Assembly (NCBI GenBank): GCA_048882505.1
Contig: JBHLRO010000006.1
Coordinates: 90,001-122,000 of the forward strand
Source of the DNA: Candidatus Thorarchaeota archaeon
GTDB taxonomy: Archaea > Asgardarchaeota > Heimdallarchaeia > Hodarchaeales > Hodarchaeaceae
Direction of reading: 5' to 3'
DNA length: 32,000 bases
Shown piece by piece: positions 6,853-19,597 of this stretch. The first letter of the stretch is position 1. Each line of letters opens with the position of its first letter. A model generated the notes under the pieces. It saw only the letters and a program-made list of their open reading frames with translations. It ran no database searches and was not told the DNA's origin. Made by a program: the position numbers and the translations under genes.

Positions 6853-7181
6853 TGCCCTTAAGTAATGTTAAAGAAGCGCTCAGGTATCTTGGCGCGATTA
6901 TACCCGAGGAAAGCTGGTGATAAAGATTGAGTAATCCGTCCAACTTGACTGCAGTACGGCATATTCCTGTCGGAATTAAAGACGAAAGGAGATTAACTGA
7001 ATTAACAACTAGGGCCTAATCGGATCATTTCGATGATTCTTGGCAAGGATTCAGCGTGGTTATTTTCATCCGAAAAACTTTGAAAGGTCGATGGAAACAT
7101 AAATTAGAGCAGAAGATTAAAACTTTAGGAAATGTAATCCAAAAAAACGGTCAGAAGACGGAGGATTCGGAAGAACTCCAC

Positions 7182-8624
7182 ATGGGGCCCAGATATCGAA
7201 TCAAAACCTCGGAAACCTGGCTGATCTACCTTCTTCTGCTCTTACCGCTGTTCCCTTGGCTCCTATTCACTAGGTATTTCCTGGTTATTTCTTCAATTCA
7301 TTCGATGCCAGATAATCATGGATCAACAGAACAAATTATCGTGCGAAAAGCAGAGTATTCGGGACAAGTTAAAAAATCCTACCTAGTTCATCCACCAATC
7401 TATATCGATGGAAACCTGGATTTCTTTTCCCATGTTATGGCAGAAAATTGGCCGGGAAACGGAACACTTGCTTCTCCGTATGTTATTGCGGGACTCAACA
7501 TAACAGGCCCTCCCGATGTGGATTTGATAGGTATAAGGAACACCGATGTACTATTCTACATCAATAATTGCCGGTTAGAAGGTGGTAATGGTGGCATTGA
7601 ACTGAATAACGTCACCAATGCGCATGTTTTAGGCAACATTATTTTGAATAATGTAGGCCCTGGTATTAGGGCCAGTTTTGGGAACACCAATACCATTTCA
7701 GGGAATACAATTATGGAAAATGATGGAGCTGGAATCACTCTAAGATTCGTGGAAAATACCACCATTTCCAGTAACTTTATCGATAATAATGCTGGAAAGG
7801 GAATAAACCTTGATTTCTCTCGATTTGCTGCCATTTCAAACAATATCCTCACCAATAATCAGAATGAGGGCCTTCGTTTAGATATCTCGGTTGGGGGTAT
7901 TATTATAGGTAATACCGTCACGCATAATGGAAACAATGGAATTGACATGCATGATTCGAGTGATAGTACTATTACGGGAAATACCTTTAATCACAACGGG
8001 GGGTGGGGGATTGTTATTGGAACATCGAGCGCTAGTACGATTAACAGTAATAAAGTTATTAATAACGAGGTGGCTGGAGTACTTCTATGGTTTGCGGAGA
8101 ATACCAGGATATCAAGTAACACTATCAGCGATAATGGTTGGAGGGGAATTAATTCAGCATTTTCTATCAATACAACTATTTCATACAATGTTATTACCCG
8201 AAACCGCAATCACGGTATACGGTGTGATGATTCGGCACGAAACTTCATTTCAGGCAACAATATCACTTATAATAGCGGTTACGGCGTCTACCTGATTAGT
8301 ACGGAAAGCACTGTTGTAATGGGAAACTTATTTATAAGTAACAATCCCCGAGGATCTTCCCAAGCTTATGATGCTGGTATGGATAATTCGTTCGTTTACA
8401 ATTACTGGAATGAGTGGACTTCATCTGATGGTAATCTGGATGGGGTAGTAGATTTACCTTATTCTATTAATGGGCCAACACATAATCAAGATGGATTTCC
8501 CCGTACTTCTCCCTCGCCTGATTTTGCCAAACAAGTAATGAATCACATCATCACTGTCTTTGCACTATTGGTGATAATTCTAAGCGCTTTGGGAGTCTCA
8601 CTACGGATACAAAGACGTGCTTGA
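7182..8624 (+). CDS. Right-handed parallel beta-helix (NosD/PbH1, pectin-lyase fold) membrane-anchored surface protein
   Basis: N-terminal hydrophobic signal; HPPIYIDGN...WPGNGTLASPYVI cap; many 'N.I..N...GI.L' repeats of about 22 aa; NYWNEW...DGVVDLPY...QDGFP end; C-terminal TM and basic tail. ATG 7182 preferred; GTG 7056 is the longest ORF. Confidence 0.88.
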   Translation: MGPRYRIKTSETWLIYLLLLLPLFPWLLFTRYFLVISSIHSMPDNHGSTEQIIVRKAEYSGQVKKSYLVHPPIYIDGNLDFFSHVMAENWPGNGTLASPYVIAGLNITGPPDVDLIGIRNTDVLFYINNCRLEGGNGGIELNNVTNAHVLGNIILNNVGPGIRASFGNTNTISGNTIMENDGAGITLRFVENTTISSNFIDNNAGKGINLDFSRFAAISNNILTNNQNEGLRLDISVGGIIIGNTVTHNGNNGIDMHDSSDSTITGNTFNHNGGWGIVIGTSSASTINSNKVINNEVAGVLLWFAENTRISSNTISDNGWRGINSAFSINTTISYNVITRNRNHGIRCDDSARNFISGNNITYNSGYGVYLISTESTVVMGNLFISNNPRGSSQAYDAGMDNSFVYNYWNEWTSSDGNLDGVVDLPYSINGPTHNQDGFPRTSPSPDFAKQVMNHIITVFALLVIILSALGVSLRIQRRA

Positions 8625-14273: not shown

Positions 14274-15398
14274 TTAAGCTGAATACACTGATACAAATGG
14301 GAAAGTTTCGTGAACCATCTGATTTAAGGAATCATATTCTTCCTTTGAAAAGCCCGTTTCTGGTAGTACACCAAATGCTGTTGCAAATCGGCTTGTGAAG
14401 ATATTTAGGGAATTATTCAGTGCTTTTGACGTGTTAGAGGTAACTATTATGCAGGTTATGTTTGTTTGACGGTTTATCAGGAGTACAGAGTTTTCTAAAG
14501 AGAGTTCATGTAGTCCTGAAGAGAGTGCATCAACTACTGCAATCATTCCAGGGTGTAAATCCTCTAGATCGCGATCATTTTGAGAAATCCAACTGTATGA
14601 GACGAGAGGTTTTTTGGTATTAGTGTCGATAATTACCAATTGAGACGTTTTAAATGGTAGAATAAACAGTAATCTAGGGTCAGATATAAACGCAATCATA
14701 ATGAAAAAAGATCCAAGTAAATATGTTATTTCAACAAGTCCGATATCCAGAGGGAGTAACTGTGTTACGATCATTAATTGGGCAACAAGATAGATAAAAG
14801 AGCCAATTAAAAAAATACTGGCTTTATTCTTCAATTCTCCTGTGGAATTCATATAGAGATTTCCGGCATATATTATCACCAAAATCGCCCTAAAACTCCA
14901 AAAGATGATTTGGGTGTAATGAAGATAGGCCGACACAGATTTTGCTGCCGTTCCGGGAAGTGATGCGAATACAACCATCGCAGTGGCAATAATCCCGAAA
15001 ATGAAAAGCTTAATGGGATCATAAGAGGTTCTATGGGCTGAGTCAAAAAAGATGACCAAAAATATGGTAAATCCTGTAACGGTGAAAAACCCAGTAAAAC
15101 CTAAAACATCTGCTAAAGTCATCGAGACCAATTCACCAGTATTGAGAGTTTTCAAGATGGGAATCCCAATATCAGTCATCAGGAAATTTATGGAGAGATT
15201 ATAAGGATCTAAGGCGAGAACCAATAGTTGTAATCCCACTAAAAAGAACCATGCAAATACACCAAGATAATCTAAGGTAAACCAGAGGAATTGGCGGTAT
15301 CGGGTATTTAGCCATCTTCTAAAACTAACAACAAGTAGTATCGCAATTATAAGTGCGTGAAACAAGGTTATCATGGAAATTAAGAACAAATCTGCCAT
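14274..15398 (-). CDS. 7-TM membrane protein with C-terminal cytoplasmic longin/roadblock-like domain
   Basis: Seven hydrophobic helices in residues ~1-245 ending ..DPRLLFILPFK; a soluble alpha/beta tail of about 125 aa (QLVIID..KPLVSYSW..; SVLLINRQTNITCIIVTS..LNNSLNIFTSRF) with longin-like topology. Confidence 0.7.
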   Translation of the reverse strand: MADLFLISMITLFHALIIAILLVVSFRRWLNTRYRQFLWFTLDYLGVFAWFFLVGLQLLVLALDPYNLSINFLMTDIGIPILKTLNTGELVSMTLADVLGFTGFFTVTGFTIFLVIFFDSAHRTSYDPIKLFIFGIIATAMVVFASLPGTAAKSVSAYLHYTQIIFWSFRAILVIIYAGNLYMNSTGELKNKASIFLIGSFIYLVAQLMIVTQLLPLDIGLVEITYLLGSFFIMIAFISDPRLLFILPFKTSQLVIIDTNTKKPLVSYSWISQNDRDLEDLHPGMIAVVDALSSGLHELSLENSVLLINRQTNITCIIVTSNTSKALNNSLNIFTSRFATAFGVLPETGFSKEEYDSLNQMVHETFPFVSVYSA

Positions 15399-15477
15399 AA
15401 TAATCGAATTCCGACCTAAAGAGGGATAGGGCTAGTTTCCTTTGAATTCACTCAATTAAACCGTAAAAACCTTTTAT

Positions 15478-16587
15478 TTATTGCTGCGAGCCTTGAAGGC
15501 TTTCCAAAATGTGCTCTTGAATCATCATGCAGCTGTTTCCATCAAGGGATTCAACATCCTTTAAAGCAGTAGTAGCTGTTTGCAAGGCGATCAGGAATTC
15601 TGCTCTTTTTTTCTCAAATATCTGATGAAGGTCTTGGTCATAAACCAATAAGATTGCTATGGGGATTTTCATCAGATTTTTTATTATGCGAGGATCGATT
15701 GATGATTTATCAACTAACTTTGTCCAATAAACTTCAAAGATCCAATCCTTAAGCTTTTCTTCCTTTCCCAGGATTGGAAATGGACCAAAAAGAGTATCTA
15801 ACTTATCAGGCTGGTACATTCGTGCGCTATACATTAGACTTGAGAGGATTTCGGAATCATCAAGCATGGTGGTCAGGAGCTCGTTCTTCTGTTCGATTCT
15901 AAATCCACGATTTTCATCAAATAAGCCAATTGCTATACCTATTGCAAATCGATCTCTCATTATGCGACTTTTACCTCTCAGGTTGGCTTGTTGTCTCTTT
16001 CTATATAAAACGGGAAGGATGAGAATTAGGATCAGTAGAAAGATAAGAGAAAAAGCGGCGGAAATCCGAAGCAATGGAGGAATAATATGACTAAGTTCAA
16101 AACGAACGATATCCTCACTGATAAGACCCACAGAACAAGTTGAGGTTATACGAATATAGATCAAACCATTGATAATAAAGGGTAAATCCCACGTAAAAGA
16201 GGTTTTATCCTGGACTGTTGCAATAAAATGCCAATCATTACTGAAACGCTGCAAATCAGGAGATGATGAAGGAAATTCCGGCAGGTTGCCGGACCATAGA
16301 TAATGCAAGGTATACGTGATTACATGACCAGCTGAATCGGAGGCTGCAATCCATTCGATGTTTAAACTTTCCAGAAAATAAACGATGGTAGAATTCTCAA
16401 TCGGTGAAATGATTGTTGGGGGAGCTAGAGTGTGATTCGCGGGTATTTGCTTTGAAGAAAAGGGAGAGATTAAATGGGGCATGAAATTTGATTCTTGAGT
16501 GGTTAATGAAGTATTGATACCAGGGCGGATAATTAGCAGAAAGATAACTGAAATTCCGAGACTCCATTGATTTCTACGCATAATCAT
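15478..16587 (-). CDS. Single-pass receptor-like protein: signal peptide, Fn3/Ig-like ectodomain, TM, cytoplasmic alpha/beta domain
   Basis: N-terminal signal; APPTIISP..LNIEW..SDSAGHVITYTLHY..W..IA..SFTWDL..IYIRI pattern; TM LLRISAAFSLIFLLILILILPVLY; cytoplasmic domain paralogous to the next gene. Confidence 0.72.
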   Translation of the reverse strand: MIMRRNQWSLGISVIFLLIIRPGINTSLTTQESNFMPHLISPFSSKQIPANHTLAPPTIISPIENSTIVYFLESLNIEWIAASDSAGHVITYTLHYLWSGNLPEFPSSSPDLQRFSNDWHFIATVQDKTSFTWDLPFIINGLIYIRITSTCSVGLISEDIVRFELSHIIPPLLRISAAFSLIFLLILILILPVLYRKRQQANLRGKSRIMRDRFAIGIAIGLFDENRGFRIEQKNELLTTMLDDSEILSSLMYSARMYQPDKLDTLFGPFPILGKEEKLKDWIFEVYWTKLVDKSSIDPRIIKNLMKIPIAILLVYDQDLHQIFEKKRAEFLIALQTATTALKDVESLDGNSCMMIQEHILESLQGSQQ

Positions 16588-16607
16588 CTCTCGGTGCCAC
16601 TGGTAGG

Positions 16608-17312
16608 CTAGAGTAATGATAATAATAGTATCTCATTTTGTAAGGTTTCAATGTTACCTGCAAGCTTGTTGAAATTTTCAAATCGGATTTTAAGTTTCTC
16701 AAGGTAACTGGTAAAGACTTCTTTTCGGTCAATAATACGGGATTCAACCTCTTTAGGATAAGTTATCAAAAGGATTGCTAAAGGGGACGTGTTTTTGTGA
16801 TTTTCCCGTGTATGGAACTTAAAACCAAAAGAAAAATAGTTGATTGCAGGCAAATCATTTTGAAGAATGTCACCTGTTCGTATCATTAGTTGACTATCTA
16901 CTGGAAAAGGGCCATACAATTGATCAAGTTTCCCTTGCATATACAGAACAGCACTATACTCCAAAAGACTCTTGATGTAATGATCAGGTAAAGAAAATCG
17001 ATCACTTTTTGCAAAGAGCTTCATTGAATCATCGATTAAGACTCCAAATGCAATTCCAAATTCTAACATCCTTTTACGAACTTTAGATGGAACCGTACTT
17101 ATTGTTGGCTTCTCAGGTTTCAAATTCAGTTGGTATAAGATTATTGGGGTAGATATAACAAGAATGATCAGAATTACGGCCGAAATCAAAGTTAATTGTT
17201 CCTCATCAAACAAACTAATTCCATAAAATGTTGCCATGATTAATGTGGCAATTAATATGGAGGAGAAAGCAATAATTCCTATGATCACTACATGTAGAGG
17301 TGGCTTTTCCAT
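16608..17312 (-). CDS. Two-TM membrane protein with the same cytoplasmic alpha/beta domain
   Basis: Two N-terminal TMs. Shares GIAxG, YSAxxY..KLDxLxGPFP and AILL motifs with 15478-16587. ATG 17312 follows GGAG (TTG 17324 is the longest ORF). Confidence 0.72.
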   Translation of the reverse strand: MEKPPLHVVIIGIIAFSSILIATLIMATFYGISLFDEEQLTLISAVILIILVISTPIILYQLNLKPEKPTISTVPSKVRKRMLEFGIAFGVLIDDSMKLFAKSDRFSLPDHYIKSLLEYSAVLYMQGKLDQLYGPFPVDSQLMIRTGDILQNDLPAINYFSFGFKFHTRENHKNTSPLAILLITYPKEVESRIIDRKEVFTSYLEKLKIRFENFNKLAGNIETLQNEILLLSLL

Positions 17313-17439
17313 TACAATCTCCAAAACTAGACGAATTATCCAGTAGAAATAGGCTGACCAGATCTAAGGAACCAAATATAATTAGATCTCTATTTTTCGT
17401 AATAATTATATCCGCTATGAATATATAACTCCTGATAGT

Positions 17440-18576
17440 TTGACTTCAATAGTCATGGACTCCCTCCCGATCGACCTCCAAGATACGGTTCGCTTTGAAC
17501 CTTTGATCCATGACCTCTACGAAGGTAAAATTAACGAACAACACGCTCGTATACTGGCTGTTCTATTTAAACTTGGAGGGTATACTACTCTGAATACCCT
17601 TCCCGGCCTCTTGAAAATGGGCCAACCTACTATTAGTATTCGAGTCGATGAACTAGTAAATATGGGGCTAGTTAGGAAAAATACTGAATTAATGCCGATG
17701 TCAATAGTACTTTTGATTTCACCAGCCACTCTTCATCAGAAAACTCAAGAACGGATTAAGAAGGTTCGATATGCTTCAGAGTTTTTAATAAAAGTTTCCG
17801 ACGTTCCAGATAAGGTCTCCATTAAAGAATTGATAGAACGTGCATTAAATATTCTGTTCCCCAAGGAAAAGAAAACCCCCCAGATCCTTAGTTCCTCGTA
17901 TGTATATCCAGATAAACTTGTTGAATATAACGAATCCCCAGATGAGGTTTCTGATTATATTCATGTCCTTACCCAAAAGGGCAAAAGGCCGCTCCTACGT
18001 TACTCTAGGCCTGCTTTACCCCTGGCTTTGTGTGCTAGAAGCAGGCTTAGCTACCATGAGGCTAAATACGAATATTACACTTCTTTGATAGAAGAATTAA
18101 CGAACTACGTTTCAGAAGAACACGTGTCGATTATTCCCCACCAACTATTGAGATTTCCGTCAGAGATTAGAAGCAGAATTGATACGTGCTTGAAGCACTA
18201 TCAAGAGATCCGAATAATCGACAACAATATCTTCAAATCAAGAGACGGAGAGATGGGCATAGTAGATCTAGTTGCTAACTCAGATAGTTTTAGGAAGGAT
18301 TCCCCTTCGGGAAATAACCATGTGGTTAAGGTTATTTCGCAAGAAAAGCACAAAGGAGGATCGAATTGGGAAAAGGGATTCATTTTTCGGTATGTCCAAT
18401 TAGCTGATGCAATCAATCGTGATTATGTCACACGTGACTTCTTGATTTTTGGACAACACGGTTGTCTGGTAATACCCTCCCGAGAGAACATTGTGGCGTA
18501 TTACAACATTACGCCATCGTTTACTGATAACATATCAGAGATATTTGAAAAATATTGGAGCGCTGCAAATGCTTAG
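17440..18576 (+). CDS. TrmB-like winged-helix transcriptional regulator
   Basis: ARILAVLFKLGGYTTLNTLPGLLKMGQPTISIRVDELVNMGLVRK is a TrmB/wHTH pattern; long C-terminal effector-like region. Alternative start ATG 17455. Confidence 0.68.
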   Translation: MTSIVMDSLPIDLQDTVRFEPLIHDLYEGKINEQHARILAVLFKLGGYTTLNTLPGLLKMGQPTISIRVDELVNMGLVRKNTELMPMSIVLLISPATLHQKTQERIKKVRYASEFLIKVSDVPDKVSIKELIERALNILFPKEKKTPQILSSSYVYPDKLVEYNESPDEVSDYIHVLTQKGKRPLLRYSRPALPLALCARSRLSYHEAKYEYYTSLIEELTNYVSEEHVSIIPHQLLRFPSEIRSRIDTCLKHYQEIRIIDNNIFKSRDGEMGIVDLVANSDSFRKDSPSGNNHVVKVISQEKHKGGSNWEKGFIFRYVQLADAINRDYVTRDFLIFGQHGCLVIPSRENIVAYYNITPSFTDNISEIFEKYWSAANA

Positions 18577-19156
18577 AGACTTTTTACGAATTATAAAAGG
18601 ATTTGTACTCTTTATAGGGCCTACTCAAGCAGGCAAGACATCTATTCTCAGACGATTGGTCACGGGTATCTTCGAAGATCCTGAACCAACGCTTGGATTT
18701 CGGGAGGAAAATATCGCTAAAGTTAGAGTTATAGAGATTGGAGGTCAAACAGAATTCAAGAAACATTGGGCGACAGCCATTGAACAAAAACCAGTTTGGA
18801 TATTCTACGTAGTAGATATTACAAGACAAGATGAACTTGAGGAATACGAGGAATTTGTCACGAAACTTGAACGAGCCAACCCTGGAATTCGTAAAAAGAT
18901 CACTCTGGTATTAAATAAGGTTGATAAACTAGAAGGGGTTCAAAGAACCGTACAAACATCCAATTCAATCATATGCAGTGCAAAAACAGGTGAAGGCATG
19001 ATAGATTTGCTGGAGGAAGTAGCGAGCAATAAGGATGCAATCACATCAGATACAAGCGATCTTGGTACTGATGCTAACGAAGGAGATTCTTCAATTGATC
19101 AAAAAGGGGAAATTGATACTGAGGCGCTAATTGATGAGTATAAAGATAAGTTCTAA
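18569..19156 (+). CDS. Arf/Sar1-like small GTPase (Ras superfamily)
   Basis: G1 GPTQAGKT, G2 PTLGF, G3 variant EIGGQ, G4 NKVD, G5 CSAK; N-terminal amphipathic MLRDFLRIIKG; acidic tail. ATG 18569 overlaps the upstream stop (ATGCTTAG). Confidence 0.88.
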   Translation: MLRDFLRIIKGFVLFIGPTQAGKTSILRRLVTGIFEDPEPTLGFREENIAKVRVIEIGGQTEFKKHWATAIEQKPVWIFYVVDITRQDELEEYEEFVTKLERANPGIRKKITLVLNKVDKLEGVQRTVQTSNSIICSAKTGEGMIDLLEEVASNKDAITSDTSDLGTDANEGDSSIDQKGEIDTEALIDEYKDKF

Positions 19157-19183: not shown

Positions 19184-19597
19184 CTAGGATTTGTACAAGT
19201 ATGCTTGCTTTAACCAATCCAGTAATTGGTCGTCGATTTCCTCTTGATTTTCAATTATAGCGACATGTACGATCGTCCCATTCATCTTTGCCGTTTTTTG
19301 GATTCTCGGATGCGTAATTCGTTCTGCCAATTTGAACTCGACCTTTATTTTATCCTTCTGAATGAAAATCATACCGAATTGGGCACGCGCGCTCATATTG
19401 ATTGCAAAGGAAATAGCATCGAACCGAACGGGAAGTTCTGCCAGCAGCAGGGCCTTTAAACTCTGATATAGCCGTTTGACTTTCTCGGATTTTCCTTTGA
19501 GGTGATCCAGCGGTTTTATCTTAGTACAGGTGTGGGTTTGGTTTTTCCTAGCAAACTGCCTTTCGCATTTATTACATGTCCAAAGGTTTATCGCCAA
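19184..19597 (-). CDS. DUF5655-like protein with N-terminal Zn finger
   Basis: WTCNKCERQF..NQTHTC followed by a DUF5655-type alpha/beta body ending EIDDQLLDWLKQAY. Confidence 0.75.
   Translation of the reverse strand: MAINLWTCNKCERQFARKNQTHTCTKIKPLDHLKGKSEKVKRLYQSLKALLLAELPVRFDAISFAINMSARAQFGMIFIQKDKIKVEFKLAERITHPRIQKTAKMNGTIVHVAIIENQEEIDDQLLDWLKQAYLYKS

Follow-up and report, generated by a model that had tools for sequence, protein, structure and literature searches.

A candidate membrane-anchored longin pair encoded beside an Arf-like GTPase and a winged-helix protein in an Asgard archaeon

The longin domains of FLCN-FNIP, Nprl2-Nprl3 and SMCR8-C9orf72 pair side by side, those of Mon1-Ccz1, TRAPP and the DENN proteins act as guanine nucleotide exchange factors (GEFs) by opening the nucleotide pocket, and SR-alpha binds SR-beta, an Arf-like GTPase at the membrane, through its longin-like SRX domain. 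Here we describe a five-gene locus of Candidatus Thorarchaeota archaeon in which longin-bearing membrane proteins are encoded next to an Arf-like GTPase and a winged helix-turn-helix (wHTH) protein. It lies within a 32-kb window (C6:90001-122000, the whole stretch of DNA analysed here) of a 4.3-Mb assembly with an estimated completeness of 94.6%. The membrane proteins are M7, with seven transmembrane (TM) helices, FN, with an Fn3-like ectodomain, and TM2, with a two-helix membrane hairpin, and each of them ends in a longin tail (Table 1). We think it somewhat probable that the tails of FN and TM2 form a membrane-anchored longin heterodimer that binds and regulates the neighbouring GTPase as its cognate partner, and we propose with less confidence that the heterodimer does so specifically in the role of a GTPase-activating protein (GAP).

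Among the eukaryotic longin GAPs, SMCR8 Arg147 is the counterpart of FLCN Arg164, the arginine finger is located in the longin βL4-βL5 loop, and GAP activity needs the longins of both C9orf72 and SMCR8 (bioRxiv 10.1101/2020.04.16.045708). In Asgard archaea, Liu et al. described Heimdall proteins that resemble FLCN, NPRL2-like longins joined to two-component domains, and an operon of a LAMTOR1-like Roadblock protein, a Rab-like GTPase and a DENN protein (10.1101/2020.10.19.343400). Which GTPase is served by the FLCN-like Asgard longins has been left open (PMC12290439). Tran et al. reported that in MK-D1 the GTPase genes do not as a rule share operons with roadblock, longin or TRAPPC3 genes, so that regulators are hard to pair with GTPases (PMC10933270), and the papers on the Asgard GTPases ArfR and AArf give no native regulators or gene neighbourhoods (10.1101/2024.02.28.582541; PMC11914678). 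In a search of open-access papers we found no description of Fn3-, β-helix- or 7TM-fused longins in a gene cluster with both an Arf-like GTPase and a wHTH protein. Small GTPases and longin or roadblock proteins number in the dozens in Asgard archaea; in the present locus and 16 related loci, one Arf-like GTPase is tied to specific longins, which names a candidate GTPase for the FLCN-like Asgard longins, the question raised in PMC12290439. With longins fused directly to receptor-like membrane proteins, the locus offers a concrete regulator-GTPase pair, open to testing, in the archaea most closely related to eukaryotes, and it bears on whether longin-based GAP chemistry and receptor coupling predate eukaryotes.

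A first-pass annotation of the window had described five open reading frames (ORFs), their strands, the spacers of 79 nt (M7/FN) and 20 nt (FN/TM2) within the membrane operon, and an overlap between the wHTH and GTPase genes, all of which we confirm. The domain that it saw shared between two of the membrane proteins is also real: FN and TM2 align by BLASTP at E 1e-8, with 31% identity over ~100 aa. Its broader reading, in which surface proteins regulate the GTPase through their cytoplasmic tails with feedback on transcription, is supported in its main lines by the results below; the feedback, and sensing by the ectodomains, are inferences. Scans of M7, FN and TM2 with Pfam, NCBIfam and PADLOC returned no family and no defence-system match.

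The arrangement is conserved across the genus and survives the inversion of one operon. Searching 41 relatives for the GTPase (threshold E<1e-15), we found it at 17 places in 14 of the 21 same-genus genomes and nowhere outside that genus, and ORFs were called on 16 of the resulting loci. The wHTH gene lies immediately upstream of the GTPase gene, adjacent or overlapping, in all 17 loci; a tail-bearing membrane protein adjoins the pair in 15 of them, the remaining two being one locus cut by a contig end and one without such a neighbour. The complete five-gene set occurs in six genomes (that of the window, G016, G009, G014, G017 and G007) at 25-50% identity, with the orders TM2>FN>M7 and wHTH>GTPase invariant throughout. 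Four of these genomes have the units in convergent orientation (wHTH> GTPase> <M7 <FN <TM2), the window and G016 in divergent orientation. The clustering of five genes at such low identities indicates that the arrangement is not due to chance, and because adjacency outlasts the inversion of one operon, a shared promoter is not required for it. Eight of the nine other loci carry single or tandem tail-bearing proteins (366-926 aa) and the ninth a TM2-like protein ~1 kb off, while tails scoring E<1e-40 are confined to genomes that have the wHTH-GTPase pair. At L026:9267-14481 (G001:C76), two tandem surface proteins of 757 and 908 aa each end in a longin tail.

Conserved neighbourhood could also be the mark of a regulon rather than of a complex, with the wHTH protein and GTPase together forming a GTPase-gated transcription factor and the membrane genes being mere neighbouring targets whose tails never contact the GTPase. 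This account draws on the wHTH-GTPase pair being the only invariant unit (17/17), on membrane neighbours that differ in number and type and are missing within reach at two loci, and on the divergent promoter region common to both units in the window. We nevertheless regard it as distinctly improbable, since units that are convergent in four genomes, and thus have no promoter in common, are still adjacent; since the ectodomains of the neighbours vary whereas the longin tail is always kept; since Arf GTPases are elsewhere coupled to the longin family of these tails with no wHTH gene present; and since a model of the tail-GTPase complex passes where its controls score zero (both detailed below).

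By hydropathy and AlphaFold2 (AF2), FN comprises a signal/TM segment (residues 6-20), an Fn3-like β-sandwich (51-168, nt 16084-16437) and a TM helix (~171-200), and is a type-I membrane protein with a cytoplasmic longin at residues 211-369 (nt 15481-15957; AF2 with a 41-row alignment, predicted local distance difference test (pLDDT) 83.6). TM2 has no ectodomain; its two-helix hairpin leads to a longin at residues ~74-234 (nt 16611-17093). The AF2 model of the FN tail has the topology β-β-α-β-β-β-α-α, and in a VIA-wide structural search residues 209-368 best match the longin of a Lokiarchaeal Roadblock-Longin protein (8yqg_B, Z 12.2, root-mean-square deviation (rmsd) 3.2, 139 aa), followed by Lst4 (4zy8_C, Z 11.2) and the FLCN complex (6nzd_H, Z 11.2), with further matches to GATOR1 (Z 9.4), the SEA complex (9.2), FNIP2 (8.9) and C9orf72-SMCR8 (8.9). 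The nearest Atlas cluster consists of 380-aa Heimdall proteins, with Pfam Folliculin on 23%. On the strength of these models, the domain shared by FN and TM2, which had gone unrecognised in the first-pass annotation, is itself a longin of the FLCN/Lst4 type. Its top structural matches include the eukaryotic longin-dimer GAP complexes C9orf72-SMCR8 (acting on ARF1), FLCN-FNIP2/Lst7-Lst4 (RagC/Gtr2) and GATOR1 Nprl2-Nprl3 (RagA). Of the longin, DENN and roadblock identities once entertained for the tails, the longin holds for both kinds of tail on the evidence of their AF2 folds, and the other two fall away.

The ectodomain of FN, previously read as that of an Fn3 receptor, does have the Fn3 fold: its VIA-wide match is the Fn3 domain of CbhA (3pdd_A, Z 10.3, rmsd 1.8, 87 aa) and Foldseek gives PKD and Fn3, with no match to Pfam fn3 by sequence. 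Foldseek of the whole FN model is dominated by this Ig/Fn3 ectodomain, and the tail matches come from VIA-wide; the FN/TM2 tail profile found no match in the PDB. We also considered whether the FN/TM2 tails and the M7 tail belong to one longin lineage and rejected the idea, as hhalign finds no similarity between them, which indicates two separate longin lineages.

An exhaustive phmmer search with TM2 against 1.8 billion representatives recovered only 22 relatives, in which the tail is always C-terminal, on proteins of 174-1230 aa whose N-termini are NosD/β-helix, WD40, TPR or unassigned, and in most of which a TM helix stands directly before the tail. A 1230-aa WD40 protein and a 792-aa TPR protein (P0022, P0019) are among the proteins that end in it; no TM helix is predicted in the TPR protein, and the module therefore also exists as a soluble scaffold. 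An iterated hidden Markov model (HMM) brings together 44 tails, and 67 of 301 Asgard genomes, almost all of them members of the class, contain matches to the tail HMM. Outside the genus, the same longin family forms the N-terminus of soluble Heimdallarchaeial proteins of ~350 aa. In a sample of 14 distant loci, the longin gene directly follows an Arf GTPase gene (Pfam Arf 1e-24) in two (L032/L033 and L041) and has a GTPase nearby in two more (L034, L035), so that the longin-Arf link is seen in two different architectures. Co-oriented cassettes in other Heimdallarchaeial families (L032:4667-8063, L033:2830-6218, L041:2516-6059 and L034:3458-6968) contain a ~284-aa protein with 7-8 TM helices, a ~300-aa soluble protein, an Arf GTPase and a ~350-aa longin protein that keeps the loop arginine described below.

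Kinship with the FLCN/NPRL2-like longins already known from Asgard archaea is apparent in 8yqg being the best structural match, in the Folliculin-annotated Heimdall cluster being the nearest in the Atlas, and in the ~350-aa Heimdallarchaeial longin proteins that the tail HMM finds across the class. The described Asgard longins are soluble or fused to two-component domains, whereas those of the loci studied here stand at the C-terminus, as cytoplasmic tails of membrane proteins of the Fn3, NosD/β-helix and hairpin kinds.

FN Arg300 lies in the β4-β5 loop, within a conserved D-x-R. The arginine of this motif is found in 25 of 27 FN-type or long proteins, and every one of the 14 distant soluble relatives has it. 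The TM2-type proteins mostly lack it (9 of 13, with TM2 of the window among them), and within the five-gene loci only the TM2 of G007 keeps it. The tandem long proteins of L026 mirror FN and TM2, with the arginine present in the first and lost in the second. The family signature also includes [ST]-F-T-D-x-G in the β1-β2 hairpin and an invariant [YF]GP[FL]P (YGPFP) before β3. By analogy, the distribution of the arginine between FN and TM2 would parallel a catalytic/non-catalytic longin pair: as in the eukaryotic longin GAPs, one type of subunit carries the β4-β5 arginine and its partner type mostly lacks it.

A ternary complex was modelled from the FN tail, the TM2 tail and the GTPase, each entered as its own alignment and without nucleotide. 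The median interface score (interaction prediction score from aligned errors, ipSAE) is 0.68 (runs 0.81, 0.68 and 0.55), and the best of three controls reaches 0.00; the runs share at least 66% of contacts, the pLDDT of the partners is at least 73, and swapping the TM2 tail for an unrelated protein gives an ipSAE of 0.00. In calibration, 58 of 80 solved complexes attain the ipSAE mark, against 2 of 110 mismatched pairs; these counts are rough for three chains entered as their own alignments. The interface brings FN residues 223-230 and 248-260 and TM2 residues 92-97 and 111-126 against GTPase residues 1-10, 19, 38-53 and 60-66. In the tails, these residues belong to the β1-β2 hairpin and α1 helix of each longin; in the GTPase they belong to the N-terminal helix, the P-loop (residue 19), switch I/interswitch (38-53) and switch II (60-66). 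The same arrangement has been described for ARF1 on the SMCR8/C9orf72 longins (PMC8213707). With its controls passed, the model supports the predicted binding of the GTPase by the two tails.

In the mechanism that we propose, the longins of FN and TM2 would pair side by side on the cytoplasmic face of the membrane, like eukaryotic longin dimers, and the GTPase would be seated on both α1 helices and on the β1-β2 hairpins, making contact by way of its N-terminal helix, P-loop and switch regions. FN Arg300 would most likely be the arginine finger, and the pair would then be a membrane-bound GAP with TM2 as its non-catalytic subunit. M7, encoded in the same operon, would bring in a second longin, of the SNARE/adaptor type, and serve as an additional receptor-like input or a docking site, and the wHTH protein, co-translated with the GTPase, would be the likeliest output or autoregulator. 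The modelled seat of the GTPase on two α1 helices via its switches is the one seen in eukaryotic longin GAPs, here with an Arf-like client. By contrast, the longins of this locus are fused to membrane anchors and ectodomains, whereas the eukaryotic ones are recruited to lysosomes by other proteins, and the genes here stand in an operon with a wHTH protein. In common with the LAMTOR1-like/Rab-like/DENN operon and with bacterial MglA-MglB, the locus places a small GTPase next to a regulator of the roadblock/longin superfamily; it differs from them in that the GTPase is Arf-like rather than Rab-like or MglA, in that the regulator is a longin and membrane-integral, and in the addition of a 7TM-longin protein and a wHTH protein.

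It is important to note that several points weigh against this mechanism. The whole analysis is in silico. Longin-dimer/GTPase complexes of this kind have already been solved, so the passing model may reflect memory of them or likeness to them, and Arg300 is outside the confident contacts of the nucleotide-free model. The eukaryotic GAP longins are marked by a GP motif in the β1-β2 hairpin (PMC12290439), and the tail family has no GP motif at that position; the DENN domain of the eukaryotic longin GAPs is also absent, as FN/TM2-type proteins end ~20 residues past the longin, and neither Pfam nor a profile search of the PDB found sequence-level likeness to FLCN, Nprl2 or SMCR8. Three or four TM2-type proteins retain the arginine, and the catalytic/non-catalytic split is therefore not clean. 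The G3 motif of the GTPase reads ExxG instead of DxxG, the exchange of Glu for Asp being invariant in 16 orthologues. Finally, the paralogues of M7, in the same genome and elsewhere, are not near any GTPase.

The position of Arg300 outside the confident interface and the missing hairpin motif would both suit docking without catalysis, in which the tails would be GTP-dependent effectors or anchors that recruit the GTPase, together with cargo borne by its EFxGKF peptide, to the surface proteins. A platform role is common among longins, many of which are platforms and not enzymes (PMC3747258). The SR-beta/SR-alpha SRX pair offers a precedent, an Arf-like GTPase held at the membrane by a longin-like domain, and the resemblance extends to the sequences and models: the GTPase also matches Pfam SRPRB (E 2.4e-4) and the structural matches of the M7 tail include the SRX domain of 6frk_y (Z 10.3). 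Here, however, the longin rather than the GTPase is membrane-anchored, and there is no NG domain of the signal recognition particle receptor. We consider docking alone unlikely, because a passive dock would not readily account for a loop arginine that is kept family-wide, even in distant soluble relatives, and that the partner subunit in particular has lost, and because the predicted interface covers the P-loop and both switches, the face used by regulators.

Nucleotide exchange is the opposite alternative to GAP activity: the longin dimer would open the nucleotide pocket and activate the GTPase at the membrane, as would befit the predominance of GEFs among characterised longin regulators (PMC12290439). 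Also in keeping with a GEF are the likeness of the M7 tail to the longins of TRAPP, Mon1-Ccz1 and Fuzzy-Inturned and the presence of the P-loop and switch I in the model interface. The tail of FN and TM2, on the other hand, has GAP-type longins as its best structural matches and a conserved arginine at the finger position, and a GEF role is in our judgement very improbable; we retain the FN/TM2 pair as a candidate GAP.

The GTPase itself was rightly called Arf-like at first pass. Pfam Arf matches it at E 5e-13 (49.3 bits against a cut-off of 22.3), followed by Ras (4e-8), Gtr1_RagA (2e-6) and the SRPRB match given above, with Roc also found, and the G motifs are present: its 16 aligned orthologues show GPxxAGKTS, PTLGF, IEIGGQ, NKxD and SAK. 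The WDxGGQ signature of switch II was not found in these orthologues, which carry IEIGGQ in its place; in two of the 16, GGH replaces GGQ. An amphipathic N-terminus, MLxDFLRxIKG, is conserved, with L2/F5/L6/I9 on one face as read from the sequence. At the other end a variable acidic linker is followed by ..EFxGKF, conserved in most orthologues, a peptide that may be a docking motif. Shared with the Asgard ArfR/AArf proteins are Arf as the best Pfam family, a short amphipathic N-terminal helix without Gly2, the PTxGF of switch I and the GGQ of switch II; unlike them, this GTPase belongs to a divergent lineage restricted to one genus at E<1e-15, reads IEIGGQ for WDxGGQ and has an acidic tail with EFxGKF.

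The wHTH protein combines a winged helix (residues ~25-85) with a conserved C-terminal region of ~280 aa that contains the motifs RDFxIF..HGCLV.P and PYYNI.P.F, and 55 columns are invariant in an alignment of 16 orthologues. Its earlier label, TrmB-like, stands unproven, as only a winged helix of the MarR/ArsR type is detectable. Over the 16 orthologues Pfam finds MarR_2 in 13 (best E 8.5e-6) and HTH_24 in 10, with the TrmB domain PF01978 in a single one at E 0.05 and PF11495 in none (0/16). Lrs14 matches at E 1e-3, the profile against the PDB finds only an ArsR HTH (E 0.023), and in an hhalign comparison with the true TrmB of the same genome, 37 residues of the HTH are all that align (E 0.004, probability 8%). 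The Atlas look-alikes are generic archaeal HTH regulators, together with weak TrmB/PLD leads (0.86). The TAG stop of the wHTH gene (18574-18576) lies beyond the ATG of the GTPase gene (18569), an 8-nt overlap with GGAG ~10 nt upstream, from which the two genes are predicted to be translationally coupled.

M7 had been described as a 7TM protein with a longin-like tail, and both parts of the description hold. Hydropathy and AF2 (15-row alignment, pLDDT 78.9) agree on a seven-helix bundle at residues 1-243, followed by a C-terminal longin at ~250-370 (nt ~14289-14651) with the topology β-β-α-β-β-β-α-α; within the AF2 model the helices span 2-239 and the longin 251-365. Positive loops after TM1, TM3 and TM5 place the N-terminus outside and the tail inside by the positive-inside rule. 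Foldseek matches the tail to AP2 sigma (6owo_S, E 7e-4, TMt 0.65) and Sec22b (1ifq_B, TMt 0.73), VIA to Sec22 (3egd_C, Z 12.2, rmsd 3.1, 115 aa) and also to AP2 mu and sedlin; other structural matches are the longins of VAMP7, Bet5, Fuzzy and Mon1-Ccz1, and the profile against the PDB finds the delta-COP longin (5mu7_B, E 0.014). On these folds, the M7 tail is a longin of the Sec22/AP-sigma/TRAPP type. No sequence likeness of M7 to FN or TM2 was found. The best matches of the bundle are Ste2 (Z 12.8, rmsd 4.3) and a designed fold like that of a G protein-coupled receptor (GPCR; Z 12.8), values within the range that is uninformative for helical bundles. Whole-length look-alike clusters of M7 in the Atlas (TM score 0.77-0.78, 70-134 members) are found in Asgard archaea, indicating that the 7TM-longin architecture is broader than the genus.

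M7 is the least tightly bound member of the cluster, with paralogues elsewhere in the genome of the window and in G010. The two in the same genome, C6:60352-61473 (61% identity) and C1:271474-272541 (30%), do not adjoin any wHTH-GTPase pair. The neighbours of the C6 paralogue are a PAS histidine kinase/response-regulator hybrid, a 481-aa protein and a 956-aa NosD/β-helix protein; the 481-aa protein was considered as a relative of the wHTH protein, and no relation was found. In the closest relative (G016:C8, L015:3724-6292) the M7 gene is duplicated in tandem, the copies having 69% and 62% identity to that of the window, and the cluster is in other respects identical. A conserved D-S-x-x-R-x-S-x-D-P-x-K occupies M7 residues ~119-130 (window 15035-15070), at the cytoplasmic end of TM3, a position that recalls the GPCR DRY motif, with no homology implied.

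Extended to its full length, the proposal would run from cues read by Fn3/β-helix ectodomains and a GPCR-shaped 7TM protein, through a membrane-fused FLCN-like longin GAP pair whose activity they would alter, to the dedicated Arf-like GTPase, whose nucleotide state would in turn govern the co-translated wHTH protein as transcription factor. We hold this chain to be doubtful as a whole. If true, it would be a prokaryotic counterpart of the wiring from receptor to small GTPase to transcription, as in FLCN-Rag-TFEB.

Table 1. Features of the five-gene locus, in window coordinates.
Feature	Position	Strand	Length and remarks
M7 (7TM-longin)	14274-15398	(-)	374 aa
FN (Fn3 ectodomain + longin tail)	15478-16587	(-)	369 aa
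TM2 (hairpin + longin tail)	16608-17312	(-)	234 aa; alternative TTG start 17324 gives 238 aa
Divergent intergenic region	17313-17454	.	142 bp, AT-rich
wHTH protein	17455-18576	(+)	373 aa; alternative TTG start 17440
Arf-like GTPase	18569-19156	(+)	195 aa

The promoters of both operons are presumed to lie within the divergent intergenic region, which has 77% identity to its counterpart in the closest relative with 'TATAAC', a TATA-like sequence, kept close to the wHTH start. An inverted repeat in the same region, perfect over 9 nt (ATATAATTA/TAATTATAT, 17376-17384/17403-17411, 18 nt apart) was considered as an operator; it is not kept in the closest relative, and we treat it as a chance occurrence in AT-rich DNA. 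Directly 3' of the GTPase gene, a DUF5655 protein with an N-terminal zinc-ribbon-like CxxC..HxC is encoded at 19184-19597 (-). Among the relatives, the closest alone keeps this gene in that place (L015:10022-10450); it therefore probably lies outside the module. Farther off, at 7056-8624 (+), the window encodes a 522-aa NosD/right-handed β-helix protein without a longin tail, a domain type that also occurs in the ectodomains of the long tail-bearing proteins of relatives.

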